Notes: generated by a model from the sequence alone, not told the origin. DNA of 32,000 bases from Gammaproteobacteria bacterium (GCA_029881255.1 JAOUMY010000003.1:26732-58731); one strand, 5' to 3'. Positions 12,782 to 31,180 are shown, counted from the first letter of the stretch. Numbers and translations: made by a program.

Positions 12782-12904
12782 ACACGTTTGCGCGCACCCG
12801 TCATCGACGATGCCTCTGACGGTAAACCCCTGGTGATTTTGGTTAACTCATCGGATATGCGCCGGGCACACTCATCATGTCTTGTCGACATAAGGCAAAC
12901 CGCC

Positions 12905-14452: not shown

Positions 14453-14487
14453 TGGAGATGATCCTCGCTAGTTTCTAGTGAGCTATC

Positions 14488-14503
14488 AGCAAGTGGGGTG
14501 CCA
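14488..14503 (-). promoter_or_regulatory. Sigma-54 (-24/-12) promoter for fliK
   Basis: The minus strand reads TGGCACcccacTTGCT, an exact match to TGGCAC-N5-TTGCW. It sits 36 nt upstream of the fliK ATG, leaving a leader of about 25 nt that contains the SD. Confidence 0.8.
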
Positions 14504-14569
14504 ATTGGGAGGATCAGGCTTTATGGTCTGGCGAGATGTGTAGGATGACCAAAGCTAAGAAAATGAATT

Positions 14570-15001
14570 TTAAGACTTATCTCGATTAAAACGGTCGTCC
14601 AGTTCCTTCTGAATACGCCGCTCCTCGGCGCGATTTTCCCCCTGAACCATGCGCTCGACCACCTTATCGACCGCCTTGGTGCGGTGGTGGACGGCCAGCC
14701 ATTGCCGTTTGAGTCGTTCGTTTTCCGCCTCGAACTGCTGGATGATCTGGCGCTGCTGTTCGATCGCGCGGGTGAGGTTATCCATAAACGCCTGATAATC
14801 CCTCAGTTTTCGCGCCGGTATGCCGTTCTGGCCCAGGCTCAGAAACTGTCGCCCGTATTCCTGCTGGTATTGCAACAAATCATCCAGGCGCTTGCGGTGA
14901 TTGGCCAGTTGTGCATTGTGGGCACCAAGCGCCCTTGCCGCCTGATCCTCGCGGAATTCGTTGAGGCGTTGAACCGGCTTCAGTCGTTGGCTACCTTTCA
15001 T
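14570..15001 (-). CDS. fliJ: Flagellar export chaperone/stalk protein FliJ
   Basis: 143-aa coiled-coil protein (QAARALGAHNAQLANHRKRLDDLLQYQQEY...) located directly after fliI. Confidence 0.88.
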   Translation of the reverse strand: MKGSQRLKPVQRLNEFREDQAARALGAHNAQLANHRKRLDDLLQYQQEYGRQFLSLGQNGIPARKLRDYQAFMDNLTRAIEQQRQIIQQFEAENERLKRQWLAVHHRTKAVDKVVERMVQGENRAEERRIQKELDDRFNRDKS

Positions 15002-15014
15002 GGCCTATCCCGAC

Positions 15015-16634
15015 CTAAACGCGAGCCGCAGCCGGCACGGGACCTGGCGCTGCCTGCCGTTGTTGCTGCTTGGCCTCCTGAACCTGCATGGCCTGCAACA
15101 GTAATCCACGGCTGCTGGGAAAATCCACCGGCTCGCCCATGTCCTGGGACAAAAAGGCATTGATCAATGGCTGCATCTTGATTGCCGCGTCCACTGCCGG
15201 ATCGCTGCCCGCACTATAAGCCCCCACGCTGATCAGATCGCGGTTGCGCTCATAATTCGAGTAGTGTTGTTTAAACAGTCGCGCCGCGCGCAAATGGGTC
15301 GGATCGACAATCTCGGTCATGACCCGGCTAATCGACTGTTCGATATCAATGGCCGGATAACGCCCCATCTCGGCAATACTGCGCGACAACACGATGTGGC
15401 CATCGAGTATGGCCCGCGCCGCATCGGCAATCGGGTCTTGCTGGTCGTCACCCTCGGCGAGCACCGTGTAAAAAGCCGTAATCGAGCCGCCACCAACATC
15501 GCCATTGCCGGCGCGCTCTACCAATTGCGGAATCCGCGCGAACACCGATGGCGGATAGCCACGGGTCGCTGGCGGTTCGCCGATGGCCAAAGCAATCTCC
15601 CGTTGCGCCTGGGCATAACGAGTCAACGAATCCATTAGCAGTAATACGTTCTTGCCCTGGTCACGAAAATACTCGGCAATGCGCGTGGCCAATGACGCAC
15701 CGTGCAGACGCAACACCGGGGGCGCATCGGCGGGCGCCGCAACGACGACTGAGCGCGACATTCCCTCTTCGCCCAGGGTGTTATAGATAAACTCTTTTAC
15801 CTCACGCCCACGTTCACCGATCAGGCCGACGACAATTACCTCGGCCTCGGTAAAGCGCGTCATCATCCCGAGCAATACCGATTTGCCCACACCACTACCG
15901 GCAAACAAACCGATACGCTGCCCCTTGCCGACGGTGAGCATAGAGTTGATGGCGCGCACGCCAACATCGAGTGGTTCGCTGATCTGATTGCGCGATAAGG
16001 GGTTGATCGGTCTTCCCTGCATGGGCACATATTCGTCTGCATCCAGAGGCCCGAGACCATCCAACGGACGACCGCGTCCATCGATAACCCGCCCGAGCAG
16101 GCCTTCGCCAACGGGAGCCTCATACGTCTGTCCTGTCGGGACCACCCGCGCGTTGGGCGTGATACCGCGCATGTCTCCGGTAGGCATGAGAAAGAGTTTG
16201 TCCTCGGAAAATCCCACGACTTCGGCCTCGACATTCTTGCCATCGCTATTGGCGACCAGACAACGGGCGCCGATGGGCGCCTGCACGCCGGTAGCCTCCA
16301 GTGTCAGGCCGACAATACGCTTGAGCTTGCCCTCGACGAGCAAAGGCATGGGTTCATCAAGACGCTTTTCATAGACCTGTAGACGCTCGGTCCACTCTGC
16401 ACTACGTGGATGCGGACCTTCCAAACGATATAAACGCGGAATGGGTCGACGGGGTGGAATGGCAGAACGGCCTTCAAGTCGTTCATGGTGAAAATGCAGA
16501 CGATCACGCCACTGACTACTGCGGGGGTGTGGCCTGTCACAGGCCATGGGAAGCGGACCGTCTAAACGCTCCGCATATTTATGTAATCGTTTACTCCAGT
16601 TATGCCGTCTTCGCTTGAGCGGGTCGTCACTCAT
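15015..16634 (-). CDS. fliI: Flagellum-specific ATPase FliI with an unusual ~75-aa N-terminal extension
   Basis: Walker [14 protein letters not shown], Walker [10 protein letters not shown], and [10 protein letters not shown] at the start of the core. The ATG at 16634 overlaps the fliH stop by 8 nt (ATGAGTGA). At 539 aa it is longer than the roughly 440-455 aa I recall for typical FliI. Confidence 0.93.
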
Positions 16635-17373
16635 GATCGCCCTCGCGCTCGCCGCCTAATACTTTGGCGATGGTCGCGGCAAGCTGTGATTCTATAGTGG
16701 CATCAATGCGGGACTCATCGGTTTCCACATTGCAACCGCCTCGCGTTAAGGCTGGGTCTTCGACGATCTTCCAGCGCTGTTCTTCTTCGCTGGCATCGGG
16801 CATGGAAAAACTTTCGCGCACCAGGGCCGCGTCTTCCGGATGTAGATACACACGAACATTGCGGCTGTTAATCGGTAAGATCGCAACAGCTTTGCGTACC
16901 GCTGCAACCACTTGTCCGGGGTCGGTTCGTAATTCACGGCGTACCACATGTTTGGCGATGGCAATCGCCACTGCCACCAATTCTTGTTCAACTTCGTCAT
17001 CAAGCTGTAATAGGGGCGCATCGAAACTCAAAATGAGTTTTCTGACCATATCGAGTTGCGCCATCAATTCGGGCTGCGCATCGCGATAGGCCTGTTCGTG
17101 TCCCTGGTGCCGTCCTTCTTCCACACCGATTGCGTGACCTTCGGCGCGTCCTTCTTCTTTGCCGTGGGCCCGGCCCTCTACCAGTCCCCGTTGAAACGCT
17201 TCGTCATATGCCGTCTTCTGAATCTTTTCCAATTCATCGGCAGTAGGCATTTTCAACTTGGACTTCTTGCTGACATTCACCAGACGCGCGTCGGGTTGTT
17301 CGTCGAACGTTGGCAGATCCCAAACCGCAATCTGCGAAAACGCGTCACTGGGATTTACTTTCTTTATTGGCAT
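16627..17373 (-). CDS. fliH: Flagellar assembly protein FliH
   Basis: The position between fliG and fliI supports the call. So do the glycine-repeat segment [31 protein letters not shown] and the C-terminal FliI-binding-type domain. Confidence 0.88.
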
Positions 17374-17401
17374 CCGATGCTCCTTCTATGGACACGCCAA
17401 A

Positions 17402-18448
17402 TTAAATAAATTCTTCGCCGCCGGTGCCGGCAAGCATGATCTCGCCCGCCTCGGCCATGCGTCTGGCAACTGCCACGATACCTTTCTGCGCCGCTTCCAC
17501 ATCGCTGACGCGTACCGGCCCCTTGGACTCCAGATCGTCTTTGAGTATGTCCGCTGCGCGCCGTGACATATTCTTGAAGAACTTGTTCTTCATCGCGTCG
17601 TCGGAACCCTTGAGCGCCACCACCAGATCTTCGGTGGAAATTTCCTTGAGCAGTGACTGGATACCGCGATCGTCGACATCGTTGAGATTGTCGAATACGA
17701 ACATGAGCTCTTGAATGTTTTCGGCAAGCTCGTTGTCCACGTCTTTGATGTTGTCGATGATTTCGGTTTCTGTGGCCGTATCAACAAAGTTGAGGATATT
17801 GGCGGCGGCCTTAACACCACCTACAGAAGAAGATTTCACGTTGGCGTTACCTGCAAATTGACGTTCCATAATATCGTTCAGCTCCTGCAGTGCAGAAGGC
17901 TGGATACCCTCGAGTGTGGCGATACGCAAAATGACGTCGACGCGCACGGGTTCGGAGAACATGGTTAAGACTTCCGCTGCCTGATCGTGTTCGAGGAAGG
18001 TCAACACGATGGCGATAATTTGCGGATGTTCGTTGCGAATGAGATCGGCAATCGATTTCGGGTCCATCCACTTAAAGGCTTCGAGACCTTTGATATGACC
18101 GCCCATGAGTATGCGGTCGATGAGTCCTGCGGCCTTGTCTTCACCGAGGGCTTTAACGAGTACGTTGCGTATATATTCGTCGGTATCGAGGCCAAGTGCA
18201 GTCGCCGTTTCAACAATGTCATAAAACTCTTTGACGACGCGTGTAACCTGGATCTTGGTGACGTTCTTGAGGCTGGCCATGGCCATACCGATGCGTTGCA
18301 CCTCTTTCGGCTCCATGTGTTTCATAACACTGGCCGCTTCTTCCTCACCCAGGGTGAGCATCAGAATCGAGGCACGCTCCAGGCCGGTAAGCGGAGGCCC
18401 GAGACGGGGATCGCCATTCTGCGGCGCTAATGGATTGTCTTCGGCCAT
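17402..18448 (-). CDS. fliG: Flagellar motor switch protein FliG
   Basis: LTGLERASILMLTLGEEEAASVMKHM, the EHPQ motif (IRNEHPQIIAIVL), and a C-terminal torque-helix region. 348 aa. Confidence 0.96.
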   Translation of the reverse strand: MAEDNPLAPQNGDPRLGPPLTGLERASILMLTLGEEEAASVMKHMEPKEVQRIGMAMASLKNVTKIQVTRVVKEFYDIVETATALGLDTDEYIRNVLVKALGEDKAAGLIDRILMGGHIKGLEAFKWMDPKSIADLIRNEHPQIIAIVLTFLEHDQAAEVLTMFSEPVRVDVILRIATLEGIQPSALQELNDIMERQFAGNANVKSSSVGGVKAAANILNFVDTATETEIIDNIKDVDNELAENIQELMFVFDNLNDVDDRGIQSLLKEISTEDLVVALKGSDDAMKNKFFKNMSRRAADILKDDLESKGPVRVSDVEAAQKGIVAVARRMAEAGEIMLAGTGGEEFI

Positions 18449-18450
18449 GT

Positions 18451-20217
18451 TTAATCCTCTTCTTCATCCAGCGCCAGCCAGGTCTTCACAACCTGCGCCA
18501 CGATGCGCGGATCTTCGTTCACCATCTTACGCAGCACTTCCAGCATACGTTGGTATTCCTCGTGACTGACGCCAAGCGCCGCCCAGTCTTCCAGACTCAA
18601 ACCACCAGGACGTTGAGGGTCGTAGTGGATGTCTTCTGCAGACTGCGAACCTTCGTCCTCTTGAACTTGTTCCTCTTCCTCGACCTCTTCCGGCGTGGTC
18701 ATGGCGCGTATTACCGGACGCACTACCAGCAGGATGATCACCAGCACCGCCAACACACCTACGCCCTGCTTGGCCAGATCGATAAACCAGGGTTGTTCCC
18801 ACAGCGGACCACTCGGTGCTGGCGGAATATCCTGGGAGATCTGGAAGGCGGCGTTGATGATATTCAGGCTATCGCCACGCTGTTCGCTAAACCCTACCGC
18901 CTCGCGTACAAGTGACCGAATACTCTCGATTTCCTCGGGAGAGTAGGTGGCGCGGGCAACACTGCCGTCGGCTCCCACAACCACTTTATCGTCCATCACG
19001 ACCGCCACCGACAGCCTTTTCAGCGTGCCCGGCGCCTTGCGCGTGTGGCTGATGGTTTTATCCAATTCATAGTTAAAAGTGGAACGATCACTCTTCTTAG
19101 ACGGGGCCTGAGAAGCACCTTTGCCGTCTGCGGGCAAAGTCTCGGGAGCCTCGCCCGCGCCCGGCGGTTGATTGGTCAGAGCACCCGGTACGCCGCTTAC
19201 ATCACCACCGCGGCTCTCTTCACGCACGGTTTGTTCACTGCGTATCGAAGGCAAATCCGGATTGAATTTTTCGGCGGTGCTCTCGGTCATGGTGAAGTCG
19301 ATGTCGGCATCGACTTGCGCACGCAATGCCTCGAAACCAACGACCGGCGTCAGTATCCGTTCGATACGATGAATGTAATACTCTTCCATCTTTTGTTTGA
19401 AATCGAATTGCGCAGAAGACAGCGCCATGTCACCTGACATGTGTCGCTTAGTTAACATGCGTCCGCGTTCGTCGACGACGGTAACATTATCGGATTTGAG
19501 TTCGGGTATGCTTGATGCGACCAAATGCACAATCGCTGCAACCTGACTTTCATCGAGTGAAAGCCCGCGACCGAGTTTCACCATCACCGATGCGGTTGGT
19601 TCTTTGCGATCGCGAATAAACACAGACTGTTTAGGTATGGCAAGATGCACACGCGCAGATTCGATTGATGACATCGCTGTGATCGAACGGGCAAGTTCAC
19701 CTTCTATCGCCTTGTGATAACGTGCCTGCTCCATAAACTGGCTGGTACCGAAGCCCTGCTGCTCGGCCAACATCTCAAAGCCAGTACCTTCCTGCTGAGG
19801 TAGCCCCTGGGTCGCAAGACGCAAACGTACCTCATGCACTTTATCCCCCGGCACTTTTATCTCACCGGTCTTGTCATCCAGTTGATACGGTATCCCCTCT
19901 TGATCTAACACCTGCACGATATCAGCGCTGGATTGTTGCGAGAGACCTGCATAGAGCAACTCATAATTCTTTTCGGTGGTATACATGAAGATGGCAATAA
20001 TCACGGTGAAGGCCGCCGCGACACCGATAACCAACTGCATTTGCTGCCGACGGGATAAGGCGCGAAAACGCGCCACCATCGGCTTTTCAGTTAAATCCTC
20101 ATCGGAATAATCCTGCATGGTATCGACAGGCAGGCGCGTATCCAGGTCCGTCGTCGCCATATCGGTACGACCCGCTGCATTGGGATTTTGAGGAAGATTT
20201 TCTGCTGGAACCGCCAT
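18451..20217 (-). CDS. fliF: Flagellar MS-ring protein FliF
   Basis: 588 aa with two TM segments. Conserved blocks YELLYAGLSQQSSADIVQVLDQEGIPYQL and SIESARVHLAIPKQSVFIRDRKEPTASV. Confidence 0.96.
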   Translation of the reverse strand: MAVPAENLPQNPNAAGRTDMATTDLDTRLPVDTMQDYSDEDLTEKPMVARFRALSRRQQMQLVIGVAAAFTVIIAIFMYTTEKNYELLYAGLSQQSSADIVQVLDQEGIPYQLDDKTGEIKVPGDKVHEVRLRLATQGLPQQEGTGFEMLAEQQGFGTSQFMEQARYHKAIEGELARSITAMSSIESARVHLAIPKQSVFIRDRKEPTASVMVKLGRGLSLDESQVAAIVHLVASSIPELKSDNVTVVDERGRMLTKRHMSGDMALSSAQFDFKQKMEEYYIHRIERILTPVVGFEALRAQVDADIDFTMTESTAEKFNPDLPSIRSEQTVREESRGGDVSGVPGALTNQPPGAGEAPETLPADGKGASQAPSKKSDRSTFNYELDKTISHTRKAPGTLKRLSVAVVMDDKVVVGADGSVARATYSPEEIESIRSLVREAVGFSEQRGDSLNIINAAFQISQDIPPAPSGPLWEQPWFIDLAKQGVGVLAVLVIILLVVRPVIRAMTTPEEVEEEEQVQEDEGSQSAEDIHYDPQRPGGLSLEDWAALGVSHEEYQRMLEVLRKMVNEDPRIVAQVVKTWLALDEEED

Positions 20218-20252
20218 ACTTTTTTACGCCTGTTTAGTAAAACGTTTCGCCA

Positions 20253-20594
20253 CTACACCTGCATGCTCATCACATCTTGATAGGCTTTGAGTAATTCCTT
20301 GCGTACCGTGAGCAAGGCCTCGAATGCGACGCTGGCCTTTTCCTTCGCTACCATTACTTGCGGCAAATCCACACCTTCGACGCCGGCTTCAAAGGCTTTC
20401 TTCAACGTCGCCGCATTCTGTTGCGCGTTATTCACTTCGTTAACTGCTTTCTGAAACAGTGAACCAAAACCGGGGGGTTGATCATTGGTCACTGGCTGTG
20501 CGTTTTGAGTCGACACATGTGGCACCTGCGCCCTCGCCTGCGAAGCAAGTCGGTGCAAATCTGACATCATGCGGCTCATATTTAAGTCATTCAT
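20253..20594 (-). CDS. fliE: Flagellar hook-basal body complex protein FliE
   Basis: 113 aa. C-terminal VMVAKEKASVAFEALLTVRKELLKAYQDVMSMQV is typical FliE. RBS AGGAAGGAG. Confidence 0.93.
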   Translation of the reverse strand: MNDLNMSRMMSDLHRLASQARAQVPHVSTQNAQPVTNDQPPGFGSLFQKAVNEVNNAQQNAATLKKAFEAGVEGVDLPQVMVAKEKASVAFEALLTVRKELLKAYQDVMSMQV

Positions 20595-20611
20595 ATCGGC
20601 TCCTTCCTCTG

Positions 20612-21991
20612 TTAAAAATTGCCGTAGGCGCTGGGGACTTCGATACCGTCTTCGCGCATGCGCGCCAGTTTGTAGCGCAAGGTGCGCTGACTGACGCCGA
20701 GTTTTTCTGCCGCAGTTTTGCGGCTACCGTTGGACGCCTTTAAGGCCTCCAATATCAAAACGTGTTCTCTGTCGCGCAGACTGTCACCGAGTTGCCCTTG
20801 CGAATTTTCGTCGTCTGTTTCTATGGGCCTTGGCGCGCTTGCACTGCTGGGCGAGCTAGTATTCATCGACGAAGGTTCAAACATGATTTGTTCATCGTCG
20901 ATGCGTTGATTGACCTGCAAAATCAGCGCACGCTGGGCGACGTTGTCCAGTTCACGCACGTTTCCTGGCCAGCTATGCCCCATCAGTTTTTGCTGTGCAG
21001 CATCGCTGAGTTCTGGCACTGGTCCACCACTGCGCGTATGCCGACGCAGTAAAAATTGCATCAATGGCACCACGTCTTGTTTGCGATCACGCAGCGGCGG
21101 TAAATGAATAGGAAAGACATTGAGGCGGTAATACAAGTCTTCACGAAAACGTCCGTTGGCGACTTCCTTTTTCATGTCGCGGTTGGTGGTGGCGAGTACG
21201 CGCACATCCAGGGGAATAAGTTTATTTCCGCCTAGACGTTCGACTTCGCGCTCCTGTAACACACGCAAGAGTTTGGCTTGCAGGCCGATGTCCATCTCGG
21301 AAATTTCATCGAGTAATAGTGTGCCGCCATTGGCCAGTTCAAACTTACCCGGGCTGGATTTATATGCGCCGGTAAACGCGCCTTTTTCATATCCGAACAA
21401 CATCGCTTCGAGCATGTTTTCCGGAATCGCGGCGCAATTGAGCGCCACAAACGGACCTTTATGCCGCGGCGACATTTGATGAATCTGATGGGCAAAGACT
21501 TCTTTACCGGTACCGCTCTCACCAGAAATCAACACCGTTGCTTCGCTGTCGGCGACCTTGGCGACGAGTGCCAAAACCTCTTTTGTTTTTGGATCTTCGG
21601 CAATCATGTCGCCGTCGACAGTCTCCTGCCCCAACACATGATTGGCAACCATATTCACCAGCACTTCGGCCTCGAAAGGCTTAACCAAATAATCAATCGC
21701 GCCATCGTGCATGGCTTCGACGGCTTTCTGGATAGTGCCGTAGGCAGTCATCAACACCGTCGGAATTTCCGGATGTAGCTCGCGCATTTTTTTCAGCAGT
21801 GTGTGACCATCCATGCCGTCCATTTGCACATCGCTAATCACCATGCCGACGTTATCGTTTTCCAGACACTCCAGCGCCGCGTGACCGTTGTCTGCTTCGA
21901 GCACGTTATAACCTGCGATCTGCAAAGTGTCGGTGAGCGCCTCGCGCAAACTCGCATCGTCTTCTACGATCAGTACGCTGGTGTGGCTCAT
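20612..21991 (-). CDS. flrC: Sigma-54-dependent flagellar response regulator (FlrC/FleR type)
   Basis: Receiver domain (VLIVEDD...ISDVQMDGMDG), AAA+ domain with GESGTGKE and the GAFTGA loop (EKGAFTGA), and a C-terminal Fis-type HTH (AAEKLGVSQRTLRYKL). ATGA overlap with flrB. Confidence 0.92.
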   Translation of the reverse strand: MSHTSVLIVEDDASLREALTDTLQIAGYNVLEADNGHAALECLENDNVGMVISDVQMDGMDGHTLLKKMRELHPEIPTVLMTAYGTIQKAVEAMHDGAIDYLVKPFEAEVLVNMVANHVLGQETVDGDMIAEDPKTKEVLALVAKVADSEATVLISGESGTGKEVFAHQIHQMSPRHKGPFVALNCAAIPENMLEAMLFGYEKGAFTGAYKSSPGKFELANGGTLLLDEISEMDIGLQAKLLRVLQEREVERLGGNKLIPLDVRVLATTNRDMKKEVANGRFREDLYYRLNVFPIHLPPLRDRKQDVVPLMQFLLRRHTRSGGPVPELSDAAQQKLMGHSWPGNVRELDNVAQRALILQVNQRIDDEQIMFEPSSMNTSSPSSASAPRPIETDDENSQGQLGDSLRDREHVLILEALKASNGSRKTAAEKLGVSQRTLRYKLARMREDGIEVPSAYGNF

Positions 21992-23235
21992 GCTTGACTC
22001 CTCTTGGATTCGGGGGCGGGTGTGCTGTTCATAATCGGCAGGCGCATAACAAAAGTCGTTCCTTGTTCATCGCTTTTACCCAACCACAGGCTGCCGCCAT
22101 GGGCCTGGACGACGTTCTGGGCGACGGCCAGGCCCAGGCCTGTGCCTTTGGACTTGGTGGTAAAAAACGGCTCAAAAATTCGCTTCTGATCTTCGGCAGA
22201 AATGCCGGGACCGTTGTCGGCGATATAAATATCTACCGAGGGCAAACTCTGTGTTTGTCTCGGTAAATCAGTGACGATGTGAATCTGTGCCTGTTCGCCA
22301 CAGGCCTGTAGCGCATTGGAAACCAGGTTTTGCATTACGCTCAACAAGGCATCGCGATTGGCGCGCAACAGGATCTCTTGTTGCGGCGGCTGGAGGTGTA
22401 ACATCGCACCGGCCTCACTCACCTGCGCTTCCATATATTGGCCAAGGTCGTTGAGTAGCTGTCCGAGGTCGACTTCCTGTAACACCGTCGCCGCGTCACG
22501 GGTGAAGGACAACATATCGTTGACCACTTTTTCCATGTGACGCATGCGATCCAGCGCCTTGTCGGCAAAACGATTGCGATCGGTTTCTTTAATGCCTTGC
22601 TTGGTCAGATTGGAAACATATAACAGTGCCGAGGCCAGCGGTGTGCGTATCTGATGGGCAACCTTGGCACTCATCTCGCCCATGGCGGATAGACGCTTGT
22701 AACGTTCGAGGGCGGTTTGCAGACCGCGAGCTTCGGTGATGTCGTTGAGTAGAATTATCTGCCCCGGCTCGTTACCTAAAGGACAGGTGGAAATCGACAC
22801 CCAACGACCAGCGAGCGTAATCGCTTCCTGACCGGTAAAGGAGCCACCGGATTGCAGAAAACCTTGTTCGACCACATCGCGCCACAGCGCGCCGTCGAGT
22901 TCCATCGCAAGTAATTCGCGCGCAGCTGGATTGGTCTCTTGAATACGGCCGCGGTTATCGATAACCACAACTCCGGCGGGCAGTGCATCCAGTAGATTGC
23001 TGAGACGGGAGGCGAGCCGCGCGTTTTCCGCCAGTTGTTCGCCATGATCGTGTTGCGCGGAATTCAGCTCTTCACTGAGATTGGAGATGTGATCTTCCAG
23101 GGCACGATAAGTCGCCGTGAGCTGATCGGCTACGCCATTAAAAGCGTTAAAAGCCTCTTGCAGCTCTTTGGGATTTGGCTTGCCTGGTTTGGTCTTGGCC
23201 AAGAAATGTGCTCCGATGATTCCGTCTGTTTGCAT
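21988..23235 (-). CDS. flrB: Flagellar sensor histidine kinase (FlrB/FleS type), soluble PAS-HisKA-HATPase
   Basis: PAS-like region (VVVIDNRGRIQETNPAAREL), H-box MSAKVAHQIRTPLAS, N-box LVSNALQA, G-boxes DNGPGI and GTGLGLAV. The start is uncertain: the ATG at 23235 has no SD and lies only ~4 nt after the predicted sigma-54 start site. An in-frame TTG at 23202 has GGAG 8 nt upstream. Confidence 0.9.
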   Translation of the reverse strand: MQTDGIIGAHFLAKTKPGKPNPKELQEAFNAFNGVADQLTATYRALEDHISNLSEELNSAQHDHGEQLAENARLASRLSNLLDALPAGVVVIDNRGRIQETNPAARELLAMELDGALWRDVVEQGFLQSGGSFTGQEAITLAGRWVSISTCPLGNEPGQIILLNDITEARGLQTALERYKRLSAMGEMSAKVAHQIRTPLASALLYVSNLTKQGIKETDRNRFADKALDRMRHMEKVVNDMLSFTRDAATVLQEVDLGQLLNDLGQYMEAQVSEAGAMLHLQPPQQEILLRANRDALLSVMQNLVSNALQACGEQAQIHIVTDLPRQTQSLPSVDIYIADNGPGISAEDQKRIFEPFFTTKSKGTGLGLAVAQNVVQAHGGSLWLGKSDEQGTTFVMRLPIMNSTPAPESKRSQA

Positions 23236-23361
23236 AACGGAATGCTTTGAGCAAGAAGCATGCCCCTGTTTAGGGCTTTAAATTCAGAGAGTTAAAAAGG
23301 CTAAATCAGACCCCGTCAAGGCTTCGTCACTTTTTTGCCGCGGATTCGGGGAATCCATACA
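23109..23361 (-). repeat. Direct repeat copy A (flrB codons 1-42 plus 126 nt of upstream region)
   Basis: It aligns without indels to 29196-29448 at a constant offset of 6087 bp. By hand count there are 17 mismatches in 253 positions. Boundaries are accurate to about 5 nt. Confidence 0.9.
23250..23265 (-). promoter_or_regulatory. Sigma-54 (-24/-12) promoter of flrB (copy A)
   Basis: The minus strand reads GGGCATgcttcTTGCT (GG-N10-GC spacing exact; consensus TGGCAC-N5-TTGCW). The -12 C is at 23251, 15 nt before the annotated ATG. Confidence 0.7.
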
Positions 23362-23370
23362 GCAGCAGAA

Positions 23371-26300
23371 TCACAAAGGATTTACCGTCAGCGTAAAATT
23401 AGCGCTGTCAGAAAACGAGTTCTTTTCGTCTACGCGGATATATAACGAGCTACCGCTGGAGCTTGCGATACAGGAGTCGTTCCACGTTCCTGCATACGCA
23501 ACATCACAAACCGTACGTGCATAGTTATCGTCGTCGTACACCCAGACATCTACGTCGTCGGTCTGATTCGAAACCTCAATCGAATATAAACCTCCAGCGA
23601 TTAAGCCATCGACGCGATAATATCGGTATTCGTCTTTTACTATCGTGTCATCAAAGGGAGTACTTAGCGATAGCGCTTGTGGAGTTACACTAAATTCGAG
23701 AATTTCCAGGACGAAATCTGAACCCGAATAGCTTATGCTCGCATCGACCACTATATATGCACTTGTACTCTGAGCGACAGCTACACAGTCATCTCCTGTG
23801 CCGAAGTAGTAGGGTTCGCAAAGTACCGAACTATAATCTGCGTCCGAATAGACACTAAGATATGTTCCCGAGTCAGTCATGCTCGCCAAGTTAAAATAGT
23901 AGGCCGTTCCAATTGCAAGACCGGTTACCTCATAATAGACCTTGCCTTTATGGGCGCTGCCAGAAGTATCGGGAAACTCTGACAAATCCATTACAATCGG
24001 ACTTGGGGCCGGTTCTATAGTAATTGAAAATTCACCACCGTTATCGCTGTAGAGCGTGTCAACCAGCAAGAACATCGAACTTCCACTGGCAGTCAAATCG
24101 CACTCGAAATGGGTAAAGCAATAAGTGCCGCTAAACGAACCCTCACTATACAATGAAAGAGAAATCGAAGAAGCCGTCGTATTTGAAATCGTCGCCCTAT
24201 ATGTAACGCCAGAGGATAAACCAGTGATTTCGAACAAACCATAGTTGACACCAATTGAACCGCGCAGCGGAAAATCCTCTGTATCGTATGCAACAACTTG
24301 CGGTGTAACTGCTGTAATCGTTACCGTATCTGTTTGACTACTCAATGTGCCATCGTTGACGATGAGACTAAAAACGTAGTCACCAATGAGGTCTGCTTGA
24401 AATTGGAAATACTTGGCGCCAGGATCGACGATAGTCGCGTTACTACCGGCCGGAGAAGAAATAAGTGTCCAGTTGTAATTCAGCGCGTCATAATTAACAT
24501 CGTAACTCTGATAGCCAAAGACAAAGGGTGAAGAGCCAACTGCTACCGCGTGATCAGCTCCTGCGTATGCGACAGGCGCGACATTTCCGCTACCTGCAGT
24601 AATTATGACAGTATCGACAGCACTATCGGATACTCCATCGTTCACAACTAAATTTATAACATAGCTGCCGTCAACATCAGCTACAAATCCCGACGATACG
24701 CTAGTAGGCGTATCAAGCAAACTAAGACCACTTGTCGCAGGTACTGAATTTATAGACCAGGAGTAACTCAGGTTGTCTCCGTTATTATCCTTGCTAGCGA
24801 CCCCTGAAAGCTCGACATATGAACCGCTTAAAACCGTTTGATCACGACCAGCGTCAGCAACTGGAGGTACATTTTGCGCGGCAGTAATCACTACTTGGCT
24901 TAATAGACTCGTCAGCACCCCGTCGCTTACCGATAACGATATTACATAGCTTCCATCTACATCGGGAGTAAAACTAGGAATCCTCGAAAGTGGTTCATTC
25001 AGCATACTTAGTGTGCTTCCAGTAGGCACAGAAACGATATTCCAGGAATAAGTAGATATAGAACCATCCTTGTCTGTACTTAGTGATCCGTCGAGACCAA
25101 CCAGGGATCCGGTTAAGACAGATCTATCATATCCCGCATGTGCAACAGGCGGCATATTTGCGCCCGCACTAATAGTTACCGTGGCTGGGCTACTACTAAA
25201 ATATCCATCGTTCACCACCAGTGATATCACATAGTATCCTTCAACATCTGCAACGAAAGTTGGATTAACAACAGTAGGATCAGACAATGCCGTAACACTG
25301 CTTCCGACCGGTACAGACACAATCGACCACAGGTAAGTAATTGGAGAACCGTCTGGGTCGATGCTTAAGCTAGCATTGAGATAAGCCGCATTTCCGACGA
25401 TTAACGATCGTCTAGGACCTGCGTGCGCATTCGGCGGACTATTAGGTGCACCGGCCGTAATCGTTACAGTTGAACTGCTACTTTGTAACTGTCCATCGCT
25501 AACGACCAAGGAAAAAACATAGTCTCCATCCACGTCGGCCGTAAAGCTTGGGGAAACGACGCTGTTGCTCGACAGAGTCGAAATACTGCCTGTTGGAAGC
25601 GATACTGTCGTCCAAGTGTACGAGAGAAGTTGTCCATTGGGATCATAACTTGCACTTCCATCCAGCGTCACCACGCTTCCAGTGGTAACATATTTTGAGC
25701 TTCCCGCACTGGAAACCGGCGGCGCATCAACCGCCGCAAGTACTGATACTGTCGCTGGGCTGCTGTTGTCCGTACCATCATTAACAGTGAGTGAGAAAAT
25801 ATATGTGCCTTCAACATCTGGGGTAAAACTCGGACTAACTGTAGCGGCATTGTTCAATGAAATCACGTTACTGGAAGCAGGTACGGAGACCACGTACCAG
25901 CTATACGTTATGAAGTCGTTGTTTGCATCCGAGCTAGCGCTACCGTCCAGTGTAACTAGCCTACCCAGGATTGCAGTTTGGTTTTCTCCTGCGTGGGCAA
26001 TCGGGACAGCCTGGAATGCGACTGATACTAAAACCTCGTCAGCGGCGCTTTCAAGGTTTCCGTCGTTCACCACCAATGTTGCGCGATACACACCAACTAC
26101 ATCGGCAACGAAACTAGGTCTCGCAGCCGTAGCGTCAGATAAACTTGCGGAACTTCCGTCTGGCGCGACCAACGTCCAAAGATAAGTGAGCATGTCACTA
26201 TCAAAATCCGAACTAAGAGACCCGTCGAGCGTAACCTTATCACCGGGTTTTGCTGACGAATCTCTACCCGCGTTTGCAACAGGAGCAGAATTTTTTGTAC

Positions 26301-26658
26301 TTGCTACAATCACCACTTCATCGTCAGCAAACTTATCAAGTTCATCGTGCACGACGAGGGAAACTCGATATACACCATCCAAGTCTGCAATAAATGAGGG
26401 CGCAACAGTGGTCGGATTCGATAAAGTTGCCGCGCTGTTTTCTGGAACGTCAACAAATTTCCAGCTATAGGTAATACGACTTCCCTCTGGATCCACGCTC
26501 AAGCTACCATCAAGCTTAACAAGCGATCCGGTAGCAATATTTTGATCCGTACCGGCATGGACGACAGGAGCCTGATTATCAAGTGGGAATTCATTTAAGC
26601 AAGAGGAAAGTAGAAGAATAGGCGAGATAGTGATCAGCTTTGGAAAATAAAAACGCAT
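23371..26658 (-). CDS. Large surface lipoprotein: 8 tandem PKD-like Ig domains followed by 3 PPC-like (pre-peptidase C-terminal type) domains
   Basis: Signal peptide with lipobox-like ILLLSSC (Cys20). Eight ~95-aa repeats follow the pattern (N)xAPVAxAGxDxxVxxGSxVxLDGSxSxDxxGxxLxYxWxxVSxPxGSxxxLSxxTxxxPxFxADVxGxYVxxLVVxDG. Three ~100-aa C-terminal domains follow, each with a conserved Cys pair (TYCFTHFEC, VLCEPYYFGTGDDC, TVCDVAYAGTWNDSC). RBS AGAGGAAAG. Confidence 0.85.
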   Translation of the reverse strand: MRFYFPKLITISPILLLSSCLNEFPLDNQAPVVHAGTDQNIATGSLVKLDGSLSVDPEGSRITYSWKFVDVPENSAATLSNPTTVAPSFIADLDGVYRVSLVVHDELDKFADDEVVIVASTKNSAPVANAGRDSSAKPGDKVTLDGSLSSDFDSDMLTYLWTLVAPDGSSASLSDATAARPSFVADVVGVYRATLVVNDGNLESAADEVLVSVAFQAVPIAHAGENQTAILGRLVTLDGSASSDANNDFITYSWYVVSVPASSNVISLNNAATVSPSFTPDVEGTYIFSLTVNDGTDNSSPATVSVLAAVDAPPVSSAGSSKYVTTGSVVTLDGSASYDPNGQLLSYTWTTVSLPTGSISTLSSNSVVSPSFTADVDGDYVFSLVVSDGQLQSSSSTVTITAGAPNSPPNAHAGPRRSLIVGNAAYLNASLSIDPDGSPITYLWSIVSVPVGSSVTALSDPTVVNPTFVADVEGYYVISLVVNDGYFSSSPATVTISAGANMPPVAHAGYDRSVLTGSLVGLDGSLSTDKDGSISTYSWNIVSVPTGSTLSMLNEPLSRIPSFTPDVDGSYVISLSVSDGVLTSLLSQVVITAAQNVPPVADAGRDQTVLSGSYVELSGVASKDNNGDNLSYSWSINSVPATSGLSLLDTPTSVSSGFVADVDGSYVINLVVNDGVSDSAVDTVIITAGSGNVAPVAYAGADHAVAVGSSPFVFGYQSYDVNYDALNYNWTLISSPAGSNATIVDPGAKYFQFQADLIGDYVFSLIVNDGTLSSQTDTVTITAVTPQVVAYDTEDFPLRGSIGVNYGLFEITGLSSGVTYRATISNTTASSISLSLYSEGSFSGTYCFTHFECDLTASGSSMFLLVDTLYSDNGGEFSITIEPAPSPIVMDLSEFPDTSGSAHKGKVYYEVTGLAIGTAYYFNLASMTDSGTYLSVYSDADYSSVLCEPYYFGTGDDCVAVAQSTSAYIVVDASISYSGSDFVLEILEFSVTPQALSLSTPFDDTIVKDEYRYYRVDGLIAGGLYSIEVSNQTDDVDVWVYDDDNYARTVCDVAYAGTWNDSCIASSSGSSLYIRVDEKNSFSDSANFTLTVNPL
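24298..26574 (-). repeat. Tandem array of 8 diverged ~285-nt coding repeats (PKD-like domains)
   Basis: The repeats start at about aa 29, 123, 215, 310, 404, 500, 595 and 690 of the 1095-aa protein. They are diverged at the DNA level and are protein-domain repeats, not CRISPR or satellite. Confidence 0.8.
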
Positions 26659-27042
26659 CTAAACTTTCCTCTTTGGTATTTGATACATCTATCGGACTAG
26701 CCAAACGCGCATCTATAACAATTTTTGCCAACAAAACCATAATTTTCCGATAAACCGACAGAACAACTCCAACTCTTTCATCAAGTTTCAAGCAATCCTC
26801 TCCCTATAACTGGCATATGGCACAAAAAAACACGCATTACTTTCTGCACTATTGGATTTATTCCCAAACAATTTCTCGATCTAAATATTTGTAAACGTTC
26901 TATACGAATACTACAAGACTAGTTAACACAGACAACATACCAATTACATCGTCGTCATCGAACAACGCCGATCCTAAACTGCCACGCACCTACTTAAAGA
27001 TAGAAACACGTCCGACGATATACATAGCAATATGCGCCACTC

Positions 27043-28440
27043 ATGAGAACCGCCAATTTGAAAAATATAATCTATAAATTAGCTCTAACAACGAATTTAC
27101 TTTTCCTATTTTCGTGCGTAACAACACCTGTGGAACACACATTAGTACCGGAAGGACACGAAAAGTCTGGACTACTTGTTGGCGAGATAATTTCAACCAG
27201 TATTCCAAATTTTAAATACGCAAGTGTCGTTATCGACGGTGTAGAACGAGGAAATTCTCGATTCGGCGGAAAAATAAAATTTTTACATTCACCTGGAAAT
27301 CATACGATAAATTCTGTAAACGTTCCTATACCCGGAACCAACTTATATAATCGCTACCCCATTAATCTAGCATTCACTATTAACTCCAAAAGAGTCACCA
27401 ATTTCGGATTGCTAAATATTGAAATACAAAGCAAAACTAATCAGTTTTTTATTTGGTATTTGGACAACAATGAAGAAATGAAATATTTTCTTAACAACGC
27501 CTACCCAAATGAATCGACAAAGATTAACTTGACCGAAATATCTCTGATTCCGAACAAGTACGTTAAAGGAAATAAGATAAATAATATTCGTAATCATATC
27601 ACCCGCAATACGCTAATTTCTCGTATGGATGACAAAACTAGACCGCTAAACGTCAAAGGATATGTACTAGGCCCTATCGGAAGCATTGCGAGATATGATT
27701 TATCCAACAAGAACTCTCCTTTGGAAACCCCTATTGACATAGATACGACGCTTGATATGAGCAATTGCAAGTCGCATGAAAAAATTGTCGCATGTCTATT
27801 CCCCCCGAGTAAACTATTCGTCGTAGATGGAAAAAAGGCATACAAACGCAGTTTGCCTGACGGCATAGTAGCCGACACTATCCGGATTCTAGACAAACAA
27901 AAATTAATGCTCATCGATAAAGCTGGGTCTATATTTGTTTCCCGAAACGCCGGTGTTTCCTGGACTACGGCACATAAAAGTACGGTAAGTCGCCAGCCTC
28001 AGTTCGCGGCGAACGAGTATCTTAACAACTATGGCTCTGAATCCTATGGTGTATATCTCGGTCCCGACAAATATTACGTTTACGCAAATTCGCGTGAAAA
28101 AAGCGGAAATTTCGGCATTTGGGAAAGTGACAGCAAATTGAAATCTTTTTCGGCTATTTCGCTACCGGAATCTATACGTGATATACCAAGTATTTTGGAG
28201 TCTAACGACACCCTTGTAATCAGCCCACGTATTGAGAATCTCTTTAACGAGGAATTCTACATACGCACTAGCGACGGAAAAACTTGGCGAACTGTCGATA
28301 CGCCTGGAAGACGGTGTGGCGCCCTGAAAGTTAGCGAAAGTGACCCGAATACCATGAGCCTGATTTGTTCCGGTAGAACATGGAAAACAACAGACGGCGC
28401 CAAAACCTGGAAGGCAAGCAACAAGTTGGATAAAGGCTAA
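27043..28440 (+). CDS. Lipoprotein with a very AT-rich N-terminal half and a BNR/Asp-box (beta-propeller-like) C-terminal half
   Basis: Lipobox LLFLFSC|VTTP. Asp-box-like motifs SRNAGVSWTT, TSDGKTWRTV and TTDGAKTWKA. The N-terminal ~200 aa are N/K/I-rich. No convincing SD before the ATG. Confidence 0.7.
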   Translation: MRTANLKNIIYKLALTTNLLFLFSCVTTPVEHTLVPEGHEKSGLLVGEIISTSIPNFKYASVVIDGVERGNSRFGGKIKFLHSPGNHTINSVNVPIPGTNLYNRYPINLAFTINSKRVTNFGLLNIEIQSKTNQFFIWYLDNNEEMKYFLNNAYPNESTKINLTEISLIPNKYVKGNKINNIRNHITRNTLISRMDDKTRPLNVKGYVLGPIGSIARYDLSNKNSPLETPIDIDTTLDMSNCKSHEKIVACLFPPSKLFVVDGKKAYKRSLPDGIVADTIRILDKQKLMLIDKAGSIFVSRNAGVSWTTAHKSTVSRQPQFAANEYLNNYGSESYGVYLGPDKYYVYANSREKSGNFGIWESDSKLKSFSAISLPESIRDIPSILESNDTLVISPRIENLFNEEFYIRTSDGKTWRTVDTPGRRCGALKVSESDPNTMSLICSGRTWKTTDGAKTWKASNKLDKG

Positions 28441-28480
28441 GCCTTGTAAGCAAACGTCAAATCATCATGAGAAGAAGTCG

Positions 28481-29107
28481 ATGACAAAAACATACAAACT
28501 GCTACTACTAAGTGTTTTTTTATTCCCATTTAACCAGACACAAGCAAGCAGCCTTGATCTCAGCGGTTACCTCAGCCTAGCACTTGGCCTTGGCGGAGAC
28601 AGATTGTTGGAAATCGGTTATACCGATGGGACGAAAGGAACAACTTACGCCGGAAATGGAGCTTCCGTTATAGTCGGCTCAACTCTTCGAAATAACTATT
28701 TTGAAACTAGAGCGGGAATCGGCTTTATGTCTGTTAGACAAACTGGCGACAATGGCGGCGCAGGGTTCAGGCGGTGGGTGGCAGAAGGAACCGGACTCAT
28801 TCGACTGGGCCGGGAAAAAAAGCATATGATTGGCGGTGGTGTGGTTTATCACATAAAACCCGTTCTAGAATGCGAATTCACTGGCCTGTGCCAAGACTAC
28901 ACGTATTTCAAAAATGCGCTCGGATACACTGTCGAATACAACTATGTATTCGACGGTGGCAATCCAAATTACATGGATACCTATGCAATCGCCTTGCTGT
29001 TTTTTACGCGTGTACAAATCGTCAAGTACCAGATTAATGATTCCACGAGCAACTATACCGCTGATGGCAGCGGTATAAGTATGGGCGTGGCAGTTACGTG
29101 GTATTGA
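28481..29107 (+). CDS. Small outer-membrane beta-barrel protein candidate
   Basis: Signal peptide MTKTYKLLLLSVFLFPFNQTQA|SS. Alternating hydrophobic/glycine-rich strands. C-terminus ends GVAVTWY (aromatic terminal residue). It starts 40 nt after the preceding gene, so it is probably co-transcribed. Confidence 0.55.
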   Translation: MTKTYKLLLLSVFLFPFNQTQASSLDLSGYLSLALGLGGDRLLEIGYTDGTKGTTYAGNGASVIVGSTLRNNYFETRAGIGFMSVRQTGDNGGAGFRRWVAEGTGLIRLGREKKHMIGGGVVYHIKPVLECEFTGLCQDYTYFKNALGYTVEYNYVFDGGNPNYMDTYAIALLFFTRVQIVKYQINDSTSNYTADGSGISMGVAVTWY

Positions 29108-29121
29108 TGAGAGAGTATACG

Positions 29122-29322
29122 TCACCTAAACGTCTTTAGTCCTAAGGCCAATATGATCTTTAGGTCACAAAGACTCATCATACTCGTGTCGCGACAAGTC
29201 GCCGTAAGCTGATCGGCTACGCCATTAAAAGCGTTAAAAGCCTCTTGCAGCTCTTTGGGATTTGGCTTGCCTGGTTTGGTCTTGGCCAAGAAATGTGCTC
29301 CGCTGGTTCCGTCTGTTTGCAT
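29122..29322 (-). pseudogene. Orphan 5' fragment of flrB (42 homologous codons plus 24 unrelated codons, then stop)
   Basis: MQTDGTSGAHFLAKTKPGKPNPKELQEAFNAFNGVADQLTAT matches FlrB residues 1-42 with 2 substitutions (II to TS). Homology ends at about 29196 and the frame runs on to a stop at 29122. Confidence 0.85.
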
Positions 29323-29448
29323 AACGGAATGCTTTGAGCAAGAAGCATGCCCCAGAATTGGGCATTGAAATCAGCGACTTAAAAAGCCTAAATCAGACCC
29401 CGTCAAGGGTTCGACACTTTTTTGCCGCCGATTCGGGGATTCCATACA
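29196..29448 (-). repeat. Direct repeat copy B (flrB' fragment plus upstream region)
   Basis: See copy A. Copy B ends exactly at the stem-loop that overlaps the leuA stop codon. Confidence 0.9.
29337..29352 (-). promoter_or_regulatory. Sigma-54 promoter copy B (orphan duplicate of the flrB promoter)
   Basis: Its GGGCATgcttcTTGCT is identical to copy A. The 30 nt upstream of the ATG are 100% identical in the two copies. Confidence 0.6.
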
Positions 29449-29469
29449 CCGGCTGACAAACTCAGCCGG
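29449..29469 (-). terminator. Stem-loop overlapping the leuA stop codon (weak terminator candidate)
   Basis: CCGGCTGA-CAAAC-TCAGCCGG, a perfect 8-bp stem. On the minus strand it is followed by TGTATGG, which is a poor T-tract. Confidence 0.35.
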
Positions 29470-31180
29470 TAATAGTACTCAACTGCGGTTTGTTTGCAGA
29501 CTTAGCAGCAATGCGCACATCCACCCCGGCGCGTATAAAGTGACGATTGATCGCCGACAACAAGGCCTTCAACGATGCACTAATCGTGTCCTGATCAAAG
29601 GCCACGCCGATGATGCGTTGGCCATCGATATTGGCGTGCACATAGGCGACCGCGACTGCATCGGTGCCCTCTTCCATCGCATGTTCGCTATAGTCAACGA
29701 TACTGATTTGTTGCCCGCAATGTTGTTGCCAGGCATCGACGAAGGCGGCCATGGTGCCCTCACCTTCACCGTGCATGGTGTGCTCACCCTGTTGATTACT
29801 AATCCGCGCTTCAATCACGTCTCGACCGTTCTTGTCGATGTGGAAGCCGTGCAAACTCAACGGCGACTGATCGTGTACATAGTGTTCGCGAAAGATTTCA
29901 TAGATCTGTGCGCTATCGACTTCGCCGCTTTGCGTCTCACTGACTTTCTGAACATGGGTCGCCAGCTCGGTCTGTACCCAACGGGGCAATTGCAAACCAA
30001 AATCACGCTCCATGACGAAGGCAACGCCGCCCTTACCCGATTGGCTATTGACGCGTATCACAGCCTGGTAGTCGCGCCCCAAGTCTTTGGGGTCGATAGG
30101 CAGATAGGCCACCTGCCAATGCTCGTCGTCTCTTTGTTTGTGCAGACATTTGCGTATCGCGTCCTGATGACTGCCGGAAAACGCGGTATATACCAGCTCG
30201 CCTATCCACGGGTGACGCGGATTTAAAGGGATATTGGTGCACTCGGTAACGACGTGGATAATCTCGTCCGGGTTAGACAAATCCAGTTGCGGATCAATAC
30301 CCTGGCTATACAGATTCATGGCCATGGTGACCACGTCCATATTGCCGGTACGCTCGCCATTACCCAATAAAGTCCCTTCGACACGATCGGCACCGGCCAT
30401 GATCGCCAGCTCGGCAGAGGCCACCGCACAACCTCTATCGTTATGGGTGTGTACCGAAAGCACGATGCTGTCGCGACGCTTCACGCGCGTAGCAAAATAT
30501 TCGACCTGGTCGGCAAACACATTCGGCGTGGCGACTTCGACGGTAGACGGCAGATTGATGATGCATTTGTGTTGCGGCGTCGGTTGCCACACATCGGTGA
30601 CCGCGTCGCAGACTTCCACGGCGTAATCCATCTCGGTACTGGTAAAACTCTCGGGGGAATATTCAAAGGTCCAATCCACATTCGGATATTTTTTCGCTTC
30701 GTCTTGTACCCACGTTGCGCCATTCACTGCAATCGCCTTTATGCCCTCGCGGTCCATTCCGAAAACACGCTCGCGTTGAATCGTAGAGGTGGAGTTATAC
30801 ACGTGCACAATAGCGCGCTTGATACCGATCAGCGATTCAAACGTACGCTGAATGAGAGCCTCACGCGCCTGCACCAATACCTGTACCGTGACGTCATCGG
30901 GAATCTGGTTTTCCTCAATCAGCCAGCGCACAAAATCATAATCGTGCTGACTGGCCGACGGGAAACCTACCTCGATTTGTTTAAAACCCAGCTTGACCAA
31001 CAAGGCCCACAGGCGGCGCTTCTGTGTTACCGTCATCGGTTCGAGTAGGGCCTGGTTACCATCGCGTAAATCCACGCTGGCCCACACCGGTGCCTGCTCG
31101 ATGACTCGGGTCGGCCATTGCCGATTCGCCAGATTTACGCCCGTCGCCGGGCGGTATTTACTGTGATTAAACTGCTTCAT
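29462..31180 (-). CDS. leuA: 2-isopropylmalate synthase, long (LeuA type 2) form
   Basis: [13 protein letters not shown], the HTHNDRG metal-binding motif, and a C-terminal LeuA dimerisation/regulatory domain. I chose the start [11 protein letters not shown] (ATG at 31180, AAGGA 7 nt upstream) rather than the track start at 31225. Confidence 0.93.

Follow-up and report, generated by a model that had tools for sequence, protein, structure and literature searches.

A 5.8 kb islet without recognizable mobility genes, bounded by direct repeats of a flagellar promoter unit, in an uncultured gammaproteobacterium

The Islet and Its Bounding Repeats

A 5834 bp islet of atypical composition lies between leuA and the flagellar regulatory operon flrBC in a 32,000 nt stretch of DNA from an uncultured gammaproteobacterium (GCA_029881255.1, JAOUMY010000003.1:26732–58731), which was analyzed at its full length and is called the window below. 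The islet carries three genes for predicted envelope proteins and is bounded by two 253 nt direct repeats (left repeat, RL; right repeat, RR), each made up of the decayed end of a fleQ gene, a predicted sigma-54 promoter and the start of flrB. We give an even chance to the account in which this recombinase-less islet was inserted by a single (Campbell-type) homologous crossover at the promoter unit and is still recombining there. The account is built on the repeats and their anatomy, the foreign composition of the islet, its lack of mobility genes, an integrated layout recovered in two assemblies, and a contig with the reciprocal hybrid junction. The features concerned, with coordinates counted from the first nucleotide of the window, are as follows.

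23109–23361, minus strand: RL, the putative working flrBC promoter unit (ungapped match to RR; runs on into intact flrB)
23120–23215 (partner 29207–29302): 96 nt identical run between the repeats, within which the crossover of the hybrid contig L164 (see below) falls
23362–29195: islet, 5834 bp, of atypical composition and without mobility genes (GC profile, GC content at third codon positions (GC3), codon use and family scans)
29122–29322, minus strand: truncated flrB' open reading frame (ORF), of 66 codons from an ATG or 55 from the TTG at 29289, consisting of the flrB start plus 24 unrelated codons
29196–29448, minus strand: RR, the displaced copy beside leuA (−24/−12 core the same as in RL, pointing into the islet)

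Base-for-base realignment of 23109–23361 with 29196–29448 gave a gapless match over 253 nt at a constant offset of 6087 nt, with 17 mismatches, of which three (at 23119, 23216 and 23219) are in 23109–23235 and 14 between 23267 and 23353. There are no indels, and the identical runs include one of 96 nt and one of 47 nt. A repeat search of the whole window returned this pair as its sole long repeat (265 nt at 92% identity when extended). The flanks of the two copies show no significant similarity and are unrelated beyond about 10 nt; a longer homology extending outside the 253 nt unit was considered and rejected, since the comparison of the flanks was not significant. The mismatches are unevenly spread (P = 2e-4 against a uniform spread), with 1/94 nt in the flrB coding segment, 2/38 in the 5' untranslated region (5'UTR), 0/26 in the core promoter, 10/47 in the spacer and 4/48 in the fleQ tail. 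On the two sides of the 96 nt core, they number 1 and 16.

On the islet side of RL, the stop codon of the first islet gene, which encodes a lipoprotein with PKD domains, is 9 nt from the repeat edge, and RL itself continues into an intact flrB with the PAS, HisKA and HATPase domains of a kinase. At the other end, 14 nt separate RR from the end of leuA, and a strong hairpin across the leuA stop codon (29442–29475; −20.4 kcal/mol, z = −4.2) touches the repeat. Homology to flrB in the RR reading frame stops after codon 42, counted from the ATG, and is followed by 24 unrelated codons; in the NCBI metagenome-assembled genome (MAG), this ORF (29122–29322) is annotated as hypothetical protein OEZ43_07705. 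An earlier, sequence-only reading of this DNA had described the same 253 bp pair with its offset and 3/14 split of mismatches, the intact kinase gene after the left copy, the loss of homology after codon 42 in the right copy, and its contact with the stem-loop on the leuA stop, all of which agree with the realignment, the domain assignments and the ORF and hairpin positions. Inverted repeats were not found at the islet ends, the nearest being a 20 nt pair (26977–26996 with 29076–29095; 18/20) that flanks two adjacent islet genes, for proteins of 465 and 208 aa, and is at chance level.

Anatomy of the Repeat Unit

Each repeat (unit U) has the same internal order: the decayed fleQ 3' tail, a spacer, an intact sigma-54 promoter, the 5'UTR and the flrB start.

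23250–23265, minus strand: sigma-54 promoter-like site GGGCATGCTTCTTGCT in RL (one mismatch to TGGCAYN5TTGCW; kept in relatives as GGCAT..TT.TTGCTC)
23317–23361, minus strand, with the same remnant at 29404–29448 in RR: decayed fleQ 3' end, about the last 16 codons, with a 5 nt insertion (alignment to the fleQ C-terminal coding end, …KYGLQR…V*, plus stop in six relatives)
29337–29352, minus strand: sigma-54 promoter-like site GGGCATGCTTCTTGCT in RR, identical to that in RL (transcripts would be antisense to the genes for the 208 aa and 465 aa proteins)

The C-termini of 14 FleQ proteins were translated for comparison, and those of the relatives read …LRKYGLQRxxESxxV*. The first 45 nt or so of both RL and RR match this coding end and its stop codon, and in both copies the reading frame of the tail, as aligned to six relatives, is broken by the same 5 nt insertion. 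Between the tail and the −24/−12 element stand the spacer motifs TTAGCC and CTGATTT. Since RL and RR share the same truncated and frame-shifted fleQ end, they appear to descend from one promoter unit that had already been rearranged. The shared truncation also makes an unrelated, homeologous donor unlikely, and the donor of the second copy would come from the same lineage or clade.

A −24/−12 promoter upstream of the kinase gene is expected at FlrBC/FleSR loci, and the predicted element GGGCATGCTTCTTGCT, present in both copies and conserved in relatives, takes that position here. Two start codons for flrB compete downstream of it. The ATG at 23235 opens the longest ORF (415 aa) and is only about 3–5 nt from the predicted sigma-54 transcription start, whereas a GGAG lies 8 nt upstream of the TTG at 23202, which is homologous to the start codon of the relative with 71% FlrB identity and is the codon from which JGI calls a 404 aa product. 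The TTG is therefore the more likely start on these sequence features, in which case the repeat contains 31 codons of flrB rather than 42, and the differences at 23216 and 23219 are differences in the 5'UTR. The figure of 42 codons per repeat given in the sequence-only reading is correct as a count from the ATG, but the true count is probably 31.

Two further structures were seen within the unit. A short hairpin lies over the −24 element (23262–23276 in RL, 29347–29365 in RR); its stem is kept in both copies while 4/6 loop bases differ, and the relative with 71% FlrB identity has a compensatory stem change (GCCT…AGGC, at about 1470–1490 of locus L166). The fleQ terminator may have left it as a relic; a terminator role for the hairpin itself was rejected, as the folding is no better than that of shuffled sequence. 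Secondly, a perfect palindrome (GGATTC-CCC-GAATCC, 23342–23356) stands at the start of RL, about 90–100 nt upstream of the sigma-54 promoter. It was created when 5 nt were inserted into the fleQ tail, has only a degenerate counterpart in RR (GGAATC…GAATCG), and is a candidate activator-binding site.

Islet Cargo and Composition

The islet holds three genes and a divergent intergenic region.

23371–26658, minus strand: 1095 aa lipoprotein with at least 8 PKD domains and a non-PKD C-terminal region (Pfam K319L-like_PKD and PKD_4; lipobox-like N-terminus; 285 nt periodic repeats)
26659–27042: AT-rich divergent intergenic region (GC 0.35–0.39)
27043–28440, plus strand: 465 aa putative lipoprotein with BNR/Asp-box-like motifs in its C-terminal half (weak Sortilin-Vps10 and F510_1955 matches)
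28481–29107, plus strand: 208 aa orphan with a signal peptide and the C-terminal residues ...VTWY (from its sequence; no family match)

GC3 is 0.40–0.46 in these genes against 0.50–0.67 in the 22 other genes of the window, and the three poorest fits to codon usage in the window are the same three genes, the contrast ending at the repeats. Overall GC drops to 0.35–0.41 at 26501–28000. Integrase, transposase, replication and phage genes were sought in the islet ORFs, small ones included, using Pfam, NCBIfam and PHROGs, and none was found; nor did Rfam give a match anywhere in the window. Searches with the cargo proteins returned no close relative outside this organism's own assemblies, the islet DNA had no match in plasmid or phage collections, and the 208 aa protein no relative in viral contigs. 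Among 5.8 billion proteins, the latter has no homologue but itself. The 465 aa protein belongs to a sparse, uncharacterized family, with about 100 remote full-length homologue clusters at 21–30% identity. This was the outcome of the search for the cargo genes elsewhere that the sequence-only reading had called for. Its description of the intervening DNA as three envelope genes, partly AT-rich and without integrase, transposase or insertion sequence (IS) ends, holds in the family scans and GC profile. By its composition the islet looks like foreign, horizontally acquired DNA, a view already taken in that reading and now strengthened by GC3, codon use and the absence of the islet genes from the flrB neighborhoods of relatives.

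Promoters for the PKD gene and, in the other direction, for an operon encoding the 465 aa and 208 aa proteins presumably lie in the intergenic region 26659–27042. The start of the 465 aa gene is disputed, with 320 aa called by NCBI and 465 aa by JGI, Logan and ENA; its remote homologues align from about residue 10–20, favoring the long form with a lipoprotein signal. An outer-membrane beta-barrel would be our guess for the 208 aa protein from its sequence; its AlphaFold model, made without an alignment, was unusable (predicted local distance difference test score, pLDDT, 33), and PDB sequence searches were uninformative. Within the PKD gene (24634–26112, minus strand) are six diverged tandem units of 282–288 nt with 61–74% identity, which correspond to the PKD domain repeats and were not reported by Tandem Repeats Finder.

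The Integrated Layout and a Contig with a Hybrid Junction

The source contig of 459,864 bp is also deposited as the NCBI MAG "Gammaproteobacteria bacterium" (proteins MDH5545455-461). An independent assembly, ENA ERZ27296367, includes a 71,739 bp megahit contig (k141_1460692; L167) that is 100% identical to window positions 11988–32000 (20,013 bp, no mismatches) and carries both repeat copies in the same order. All four outer repeat junctions are also present at 100% identity in the Logan contigs of SRR7132271, although these k = 31 contigs all break within the identical runs and so cannot phase the copies. Because the independent assembly gives the same layout, misassembly of the integrated form, which the sequence-only reading had asked to be excluded, is very unlikely.

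An empty site, in which leuA is followed by a single promoter copy and flrB, was not found in FlrB scans of genome and metagenome contigs, where the best matches were 51–56% identical. The nearest FlrB in the protein database is 71% identical, and the lack of an empty site can be ascribed to the unavailability of a close relative. Exact look-ups of the LeuA, Lrp-like regulator, FlrC, FliE, 465 aa and 208 aa proteins retrieved contigs from this strain and no other, and neither of the two FlrB forms had a recorded match when looked up.

One of the retrieved contigs has a different connectivity. L164 is a 2791 bp megahit contig from a sister sample (ENA ERZ27296366) that carries the complete gene for the 208 aa protein. 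It consists of window positions 27383–29195, one repeat, and positions 23362–24086, so that the right and left ends of the islet are joined. The repeat in L164 is of hybrid type, combining the RR base at 23119 with RL bases at the remaining 16 differing positions; elsewhere the contig is identical to the window. This phase places the crossover within the 96 nt identical run 23120–23215. L164 could be the junction expected of a looped-out 6087 bp circle or the inner junction of a tandem duplication; it could just as well represent, in its free state, a circle that entered the chromosome through one crossover. We think it fairly probable that it reflects real molecules: the final k of the assembler was 141, longer than the 96 nt core, and a false path giving this contig would need several competing branches to have been pruned. 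No empty-site contig matching the L164 junction was found among the contigs from the exact-protein look-ups.

Origin of the Islet

In the account that we prefer, a chromosome with the order leuA, U, flrB would have recombined once with a circle made up of the islet and its own copy of U. Given the truncated fleQ end common to the two copies of U, the source of the circle would be a diverged bacterium of the same clade. The integration crossover would fall in the 96 nt identical run, and any designation of RL or RR as the native copy is provisional. RL, next to flrB, would supply the promoter, ribosome-binding site and N-terminus, so that flrBC would stay expressed. RR would be left beside leuA as a stub of 55–66 codons, and its intact predicted sigma-54 promoter would fire antisense into the operon for the 208 aa and 465 aa proteins. 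Since the copies are direct repeats, the islet would be open to host recombination, which could loop it out as a 6087 bp circle or duplicate it in tandem.

A single crossover is favored by the exact geometry of the repeats and by the unrelated flanks outside the 253 nt unit. The region of outlying composition stops at the repeats, and the integrated form was independently assembled. L164 has the junction that a circle or tandem copy would show after a crossover in the 96 nt core, and in this way supports the Campbell geometry. If RL and RR were reciprocal chimeras, each derived from two parental units, the mismatches would be expected to split around the core as they do (1 vs 16). Their density follows functional constraint and there are no indels, a pattern more readily explained by the divergence of two functional units than by the neutral decay of one copy. 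The microcin H47 island, which likewise has no recombinase, shows that elements of this sort are known (PMC3191183). The sequence-only reading had put forward Campbell-type integration of a circular DNA with a homeologous flrB segment, and had foreseen a junction detectable by outward-facing polymerase chain reaction. That junction is carried by L164, but the shared fleQ truncation speaks against an unrelated donor.

Several points weigh against a single crossover. Both copies end at the same fleQ-tail nucleotide beside unrelated neighbors (the PKD gene stop in one case, the leuA hairpin in the other), and the crossover explains how the islet spread, not how the repeat–islet–repeat arrangement was first formed, for which an earlier, unexplained event is needed. 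The islet has no replication, transfer or integration functions, and a free circle would be a dead end unless transformed. Only one synonymous difference occurs in 31 codons, which is low beside the 21% divergence of the spacer and hints at gene conversion. Derived bases at positions conserved in outgroups number roughly 3–5 in RR and 1 in RL, a count for which the outgroups are too distant to give significance, and one that slightly favors the view that RR decayed where it stands. The FlrB scans turned up neither an empty site nor a close relative without the islet. Lastly, L164 is a single contig from a fragmented, probably low-coverage assembly (a chromosomal contig of the same sample is 2672 bp), and may instead be a graph artefact through the collapsed core.

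Some of these points would be met by a duplication in place, which we regard as possible, if somewhat unlikely. The islet would have entered between leuA and U-flrB by illegitimate recombination or a template switch that copied the 253 nt unit on both sides or, in a variant, would have interrupted flrB, a second event then restoring the gene. RR would since have drifted, gene conversion from RL would have kept its promoter and coding part, and L164 would be a later loop-out or tandem product. The same truncated fleQ end in both copies is what would result if one unit had been copied whole. RR has the more derived bases at outgroup-conserved positions, near-identical coding and promoter segments beside a 21% diverged spacer fit gene conversion, and neither a donor element nor a mobility gene was found anywhere searched. 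However, a 253 bp target duplication has no known mechanism, and it would be odd for a relic in decay to have accumulated 17 substitutions in keeping with constraint and not one indel. Moreover, one endpoint of the duplication must coincide with the older fleQ/leuA rearrangement junction, and the spacer divergence needs a long residence, yet the codon use of the islet is still strongly foreign.

The single-crossover account could be extended to one in which the islet is a recombinase-free mobile cassette, with a portable flrBC promoter and gene start serving as its homologous attachment site. Host recombination would move the cassette between related strains, where it would cycle between integrated, looped-out and amplified states, and antisense transcription from the leftover promoter would set motility against the surface proteins through the FleQ/sigma-54 regulon. 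We consider this extension quite unlikely.

A little less probable still would be a parasitic site-specific island, the repeats being attL and attR for a recombinase encoded elsewhere and acting independently of RecA, as proposed for the microcin H47 island (PMC3191183). The anatomy is H47-like in that the islet is small, has no recombinase, is bounded by extensive imperfect repeats and has a putative hybrid junction at which the copies would have crossed over within identical sequence (PMC3191183). Nothing here separates site-specific from homologous exchange, though, and 96 identical nt would offer RecA an ample substrate; no recombinase-binding architecture can be recognized in the repeat, which is an ordinary promoter with a gene start, and in the window the unit was not found at other loci. 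The weakest of the alternatives, to which we give very little credence, is an assembly artefact in which an island-free chromosome and a separate 6.1 kb circle, or two strain variants, were joined through the 96 nt core: the breaks of the Logan k = 31 contigs inside identical runs and the alternative connectivity of L164 would suit it, but the 459,864 bp source contig and the 71,739 bp ERZ27296367 megahit contig give the integrated layout at 100% identity, the core is shorter than k = 141 and than typical reads, and a 6 kb circle without a replication gene is unlikely to persist alone.

The locus offers a clean natural example of foreign genes in a chromosome without dedicated mobility machinery, in which duplicated host sequence would both mend an interrupted operon and offer a substrate for later excision or amplification. 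It also indicates that the flagellar regulatory cascade has been rewired in this uncultured gammaproteobacterium, with fleQ displaced and a spare FleQ-type promoter facing acquired genes for surface proteins. If the hybrid junction is true at read level, the locus would give a direct measure of how often a recombinase-less islet loops out in natural populations.

The flrBC Operon, Its Native Context and the Loss of fleQ

At the fleQ-fleS-fleR and flrA-flrB-flrC loci of Gammaproteobacteria, a gene for a PAS kinase, preceded by a sigma-54 promoter, and one for a sigma-54-dependent response regulator are followed by fliE and fliF. The genes on the two sides of the islet are the following.

12905–20594, minus strand: fliE, fliF, fliG, fliH, fliI, fliJ and fliK, directly downstream of flrBC
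20612–21991, minus strand: flrC-like sigma-54-dependent response regulator (Response_reg, Sigma54_activat, HTH_8)
21988–23202, minus strand: flrB-like PAS histidine kinase (Pfam PAS, HisKA, HATPase_c; homologues named FlrB by JGI; 404 aa from TTG)
29462–31180, minus strand: leuA, long-form 2-isopropylmalate synthase (NCBIfam NF002991 and TIGR00970)

As at FlrBC/FleSR loci, the kinase and sigma-54 response regulator adjoin fliE and fliF. The fliE gene starts 17 nt after flrC, and because this gap shows no evident promoter, fliE to fliJ are probably expressed together with flrBC from the RL promoter.

The upstream side departs from the known arrangement. For comparison, the relative with 71% FlrB identity (L166) and twelve loci at 46–56% identity were used, and in 13/13 of these relatives with upstream sequence, a sigma-54 activator gene of the fleQ/flrA type is immediately upstream of flrB. 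Neither leuA nor the islet genes occur near flrB in any of the 13. Here, fleQ/flrA is gone from this conserved position, where only about 45 nt of its 3' end is left, in two copies, with leuA and the islet in its place. Neither the window nor the additional sequence that L165 and L167 provide holds fleQ or any sigma-54 activator gene besides flrC. Given fleQ in 13/13 relatives, leuA is not the ancestral neighbor of flrB, contrary to the sequence-only reading, in which leuA was taken as the native upstream context. The remnants in both repeats suggest that an earlier rearrangement removed fleQ from upstream of flrB.

Several observations were made on the flagellar genes themselves. The block flrB-flrC-fliEFGHIJK (12905–23361) is isolated amid genes of amino-acid metabolism, with an argA-like gene, argG, a GCS2-family ligase and a Sel1 protein on one side, and leuA and an Lrp/AsnC regulator on the other. 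Neither fliL nor fliM follows fliK, so that the cluster is cut from its usual context (compared with L001, L002, L081–L091 and L166). A 26 nt inverted repeat (12816–12841 with 23366–23391; 22/26 complementary) brackets the block, one arm being 64 nt past the fliK stop and the other spanning the final codons of the PKD gene, at 5 nt from the edge of RL. Its score is near chance (about 0.3 expected), but its placement is striking, and it may have been left behind when a rearrangement moved the flagellar block. A perfect sigma-54 consensus, TGGCACCCCACTTGCT, is present at 14488–14503 (minus strand), 36 nt upstream of the fliK start. The FliI ATPase ORF (15015–16634, minus strand) is 539 aa long, with its ATPase domain from residue 225, so that, if the start is called correctly, the N-terminal region exceeds its usual length by about 75–100 residues; the 539 aa call is also found in Logan and ENA contigs. 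At the far end of the window (66–3334, plus strand), two paralogous DUF5666 proteins of 309 and 484 aa lie on either side of a DUF6502 protein and share short direct DNA repeats.

Comparison with Known Systems

In laboratory insertion-duplication (Campbell integration), a non-replicating circle with a homologous segment integrates into the chromosome, and the event is reversible by recombination between the resulting repeats. The islet resembles such an insertion in that a homologous segment is doubled as direct repeats around the inserted DNA. The laboratory event is engineered, however. To our knowledge, natural examples of the Campbell type without a plasmid or phage backbone are seldom documented. 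A transposon or IS was ruled out, since there is no transposase, there are no terminal inverted repeats, and the duplication is 253 nt long.

The integrative elements SXT/R391 at prfC and the dusA-specific integrative and mobilizable elements (IMEs) insert into the 5' end of their target gene, provide a replacement promoter and N-terminus, and encode integrases (PMC8409611). As would be the case at the islet, the target gene is parted from its original promoter and start and regains expression through the copy next to it, with a displaced 5' fragment remaining at the far end of the element (PMC8409611). These elements have a tyrosine integrase, a recombination directionality factor and a short core site, are 20–100 kb in length, and are conjugative or mobilizable (PMC8409611). 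In contrast, the islet is 5.8 kb, has no such genes, and is bounded by a 253 nt repeat with a 96 nt identical core. Of the marks of an integrase-borne element, it shows direct repeats with an identical core, but encodes no recombinase of its own and no transfer, mobilization, replication or phage genes.

The nearest functional analogue of the islet is the microcin H47 island of E. coli, which encodes no recombinase and whose extensive imperfect repeats give rise, on excision and integration, to hybrid sites by crossing over in identity stretches (PMC3191183). Both are small, lack an integrase and excisionase of their own and are bounded by extensive imperfect direct repeats (PMC3191183). A possible counterpart of the hybrid sites is, for the islet, the island-side junction in the single contig L164, for which no matching empty-site contig was found. 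The H47 repeats are dedicated attachment sequences present in many E. coli islands, and their RecA-independent exchange has been shown experimentally (PMC3191183). In the islet, by contrast, the repeat is a sigma-54 promoter and gene start, the junction is a single one found in silico, and there is no sequence relationship to the H47 island or to any of the other elements compared here. From its sequence, then, the element would belong to a known kind, the recombinase-less islet bounded by long imperfect repeats, and would be unusual in that its repeats are a flagellar sigma-54 promoter unit and that a reciprocal junction is seen in silico.

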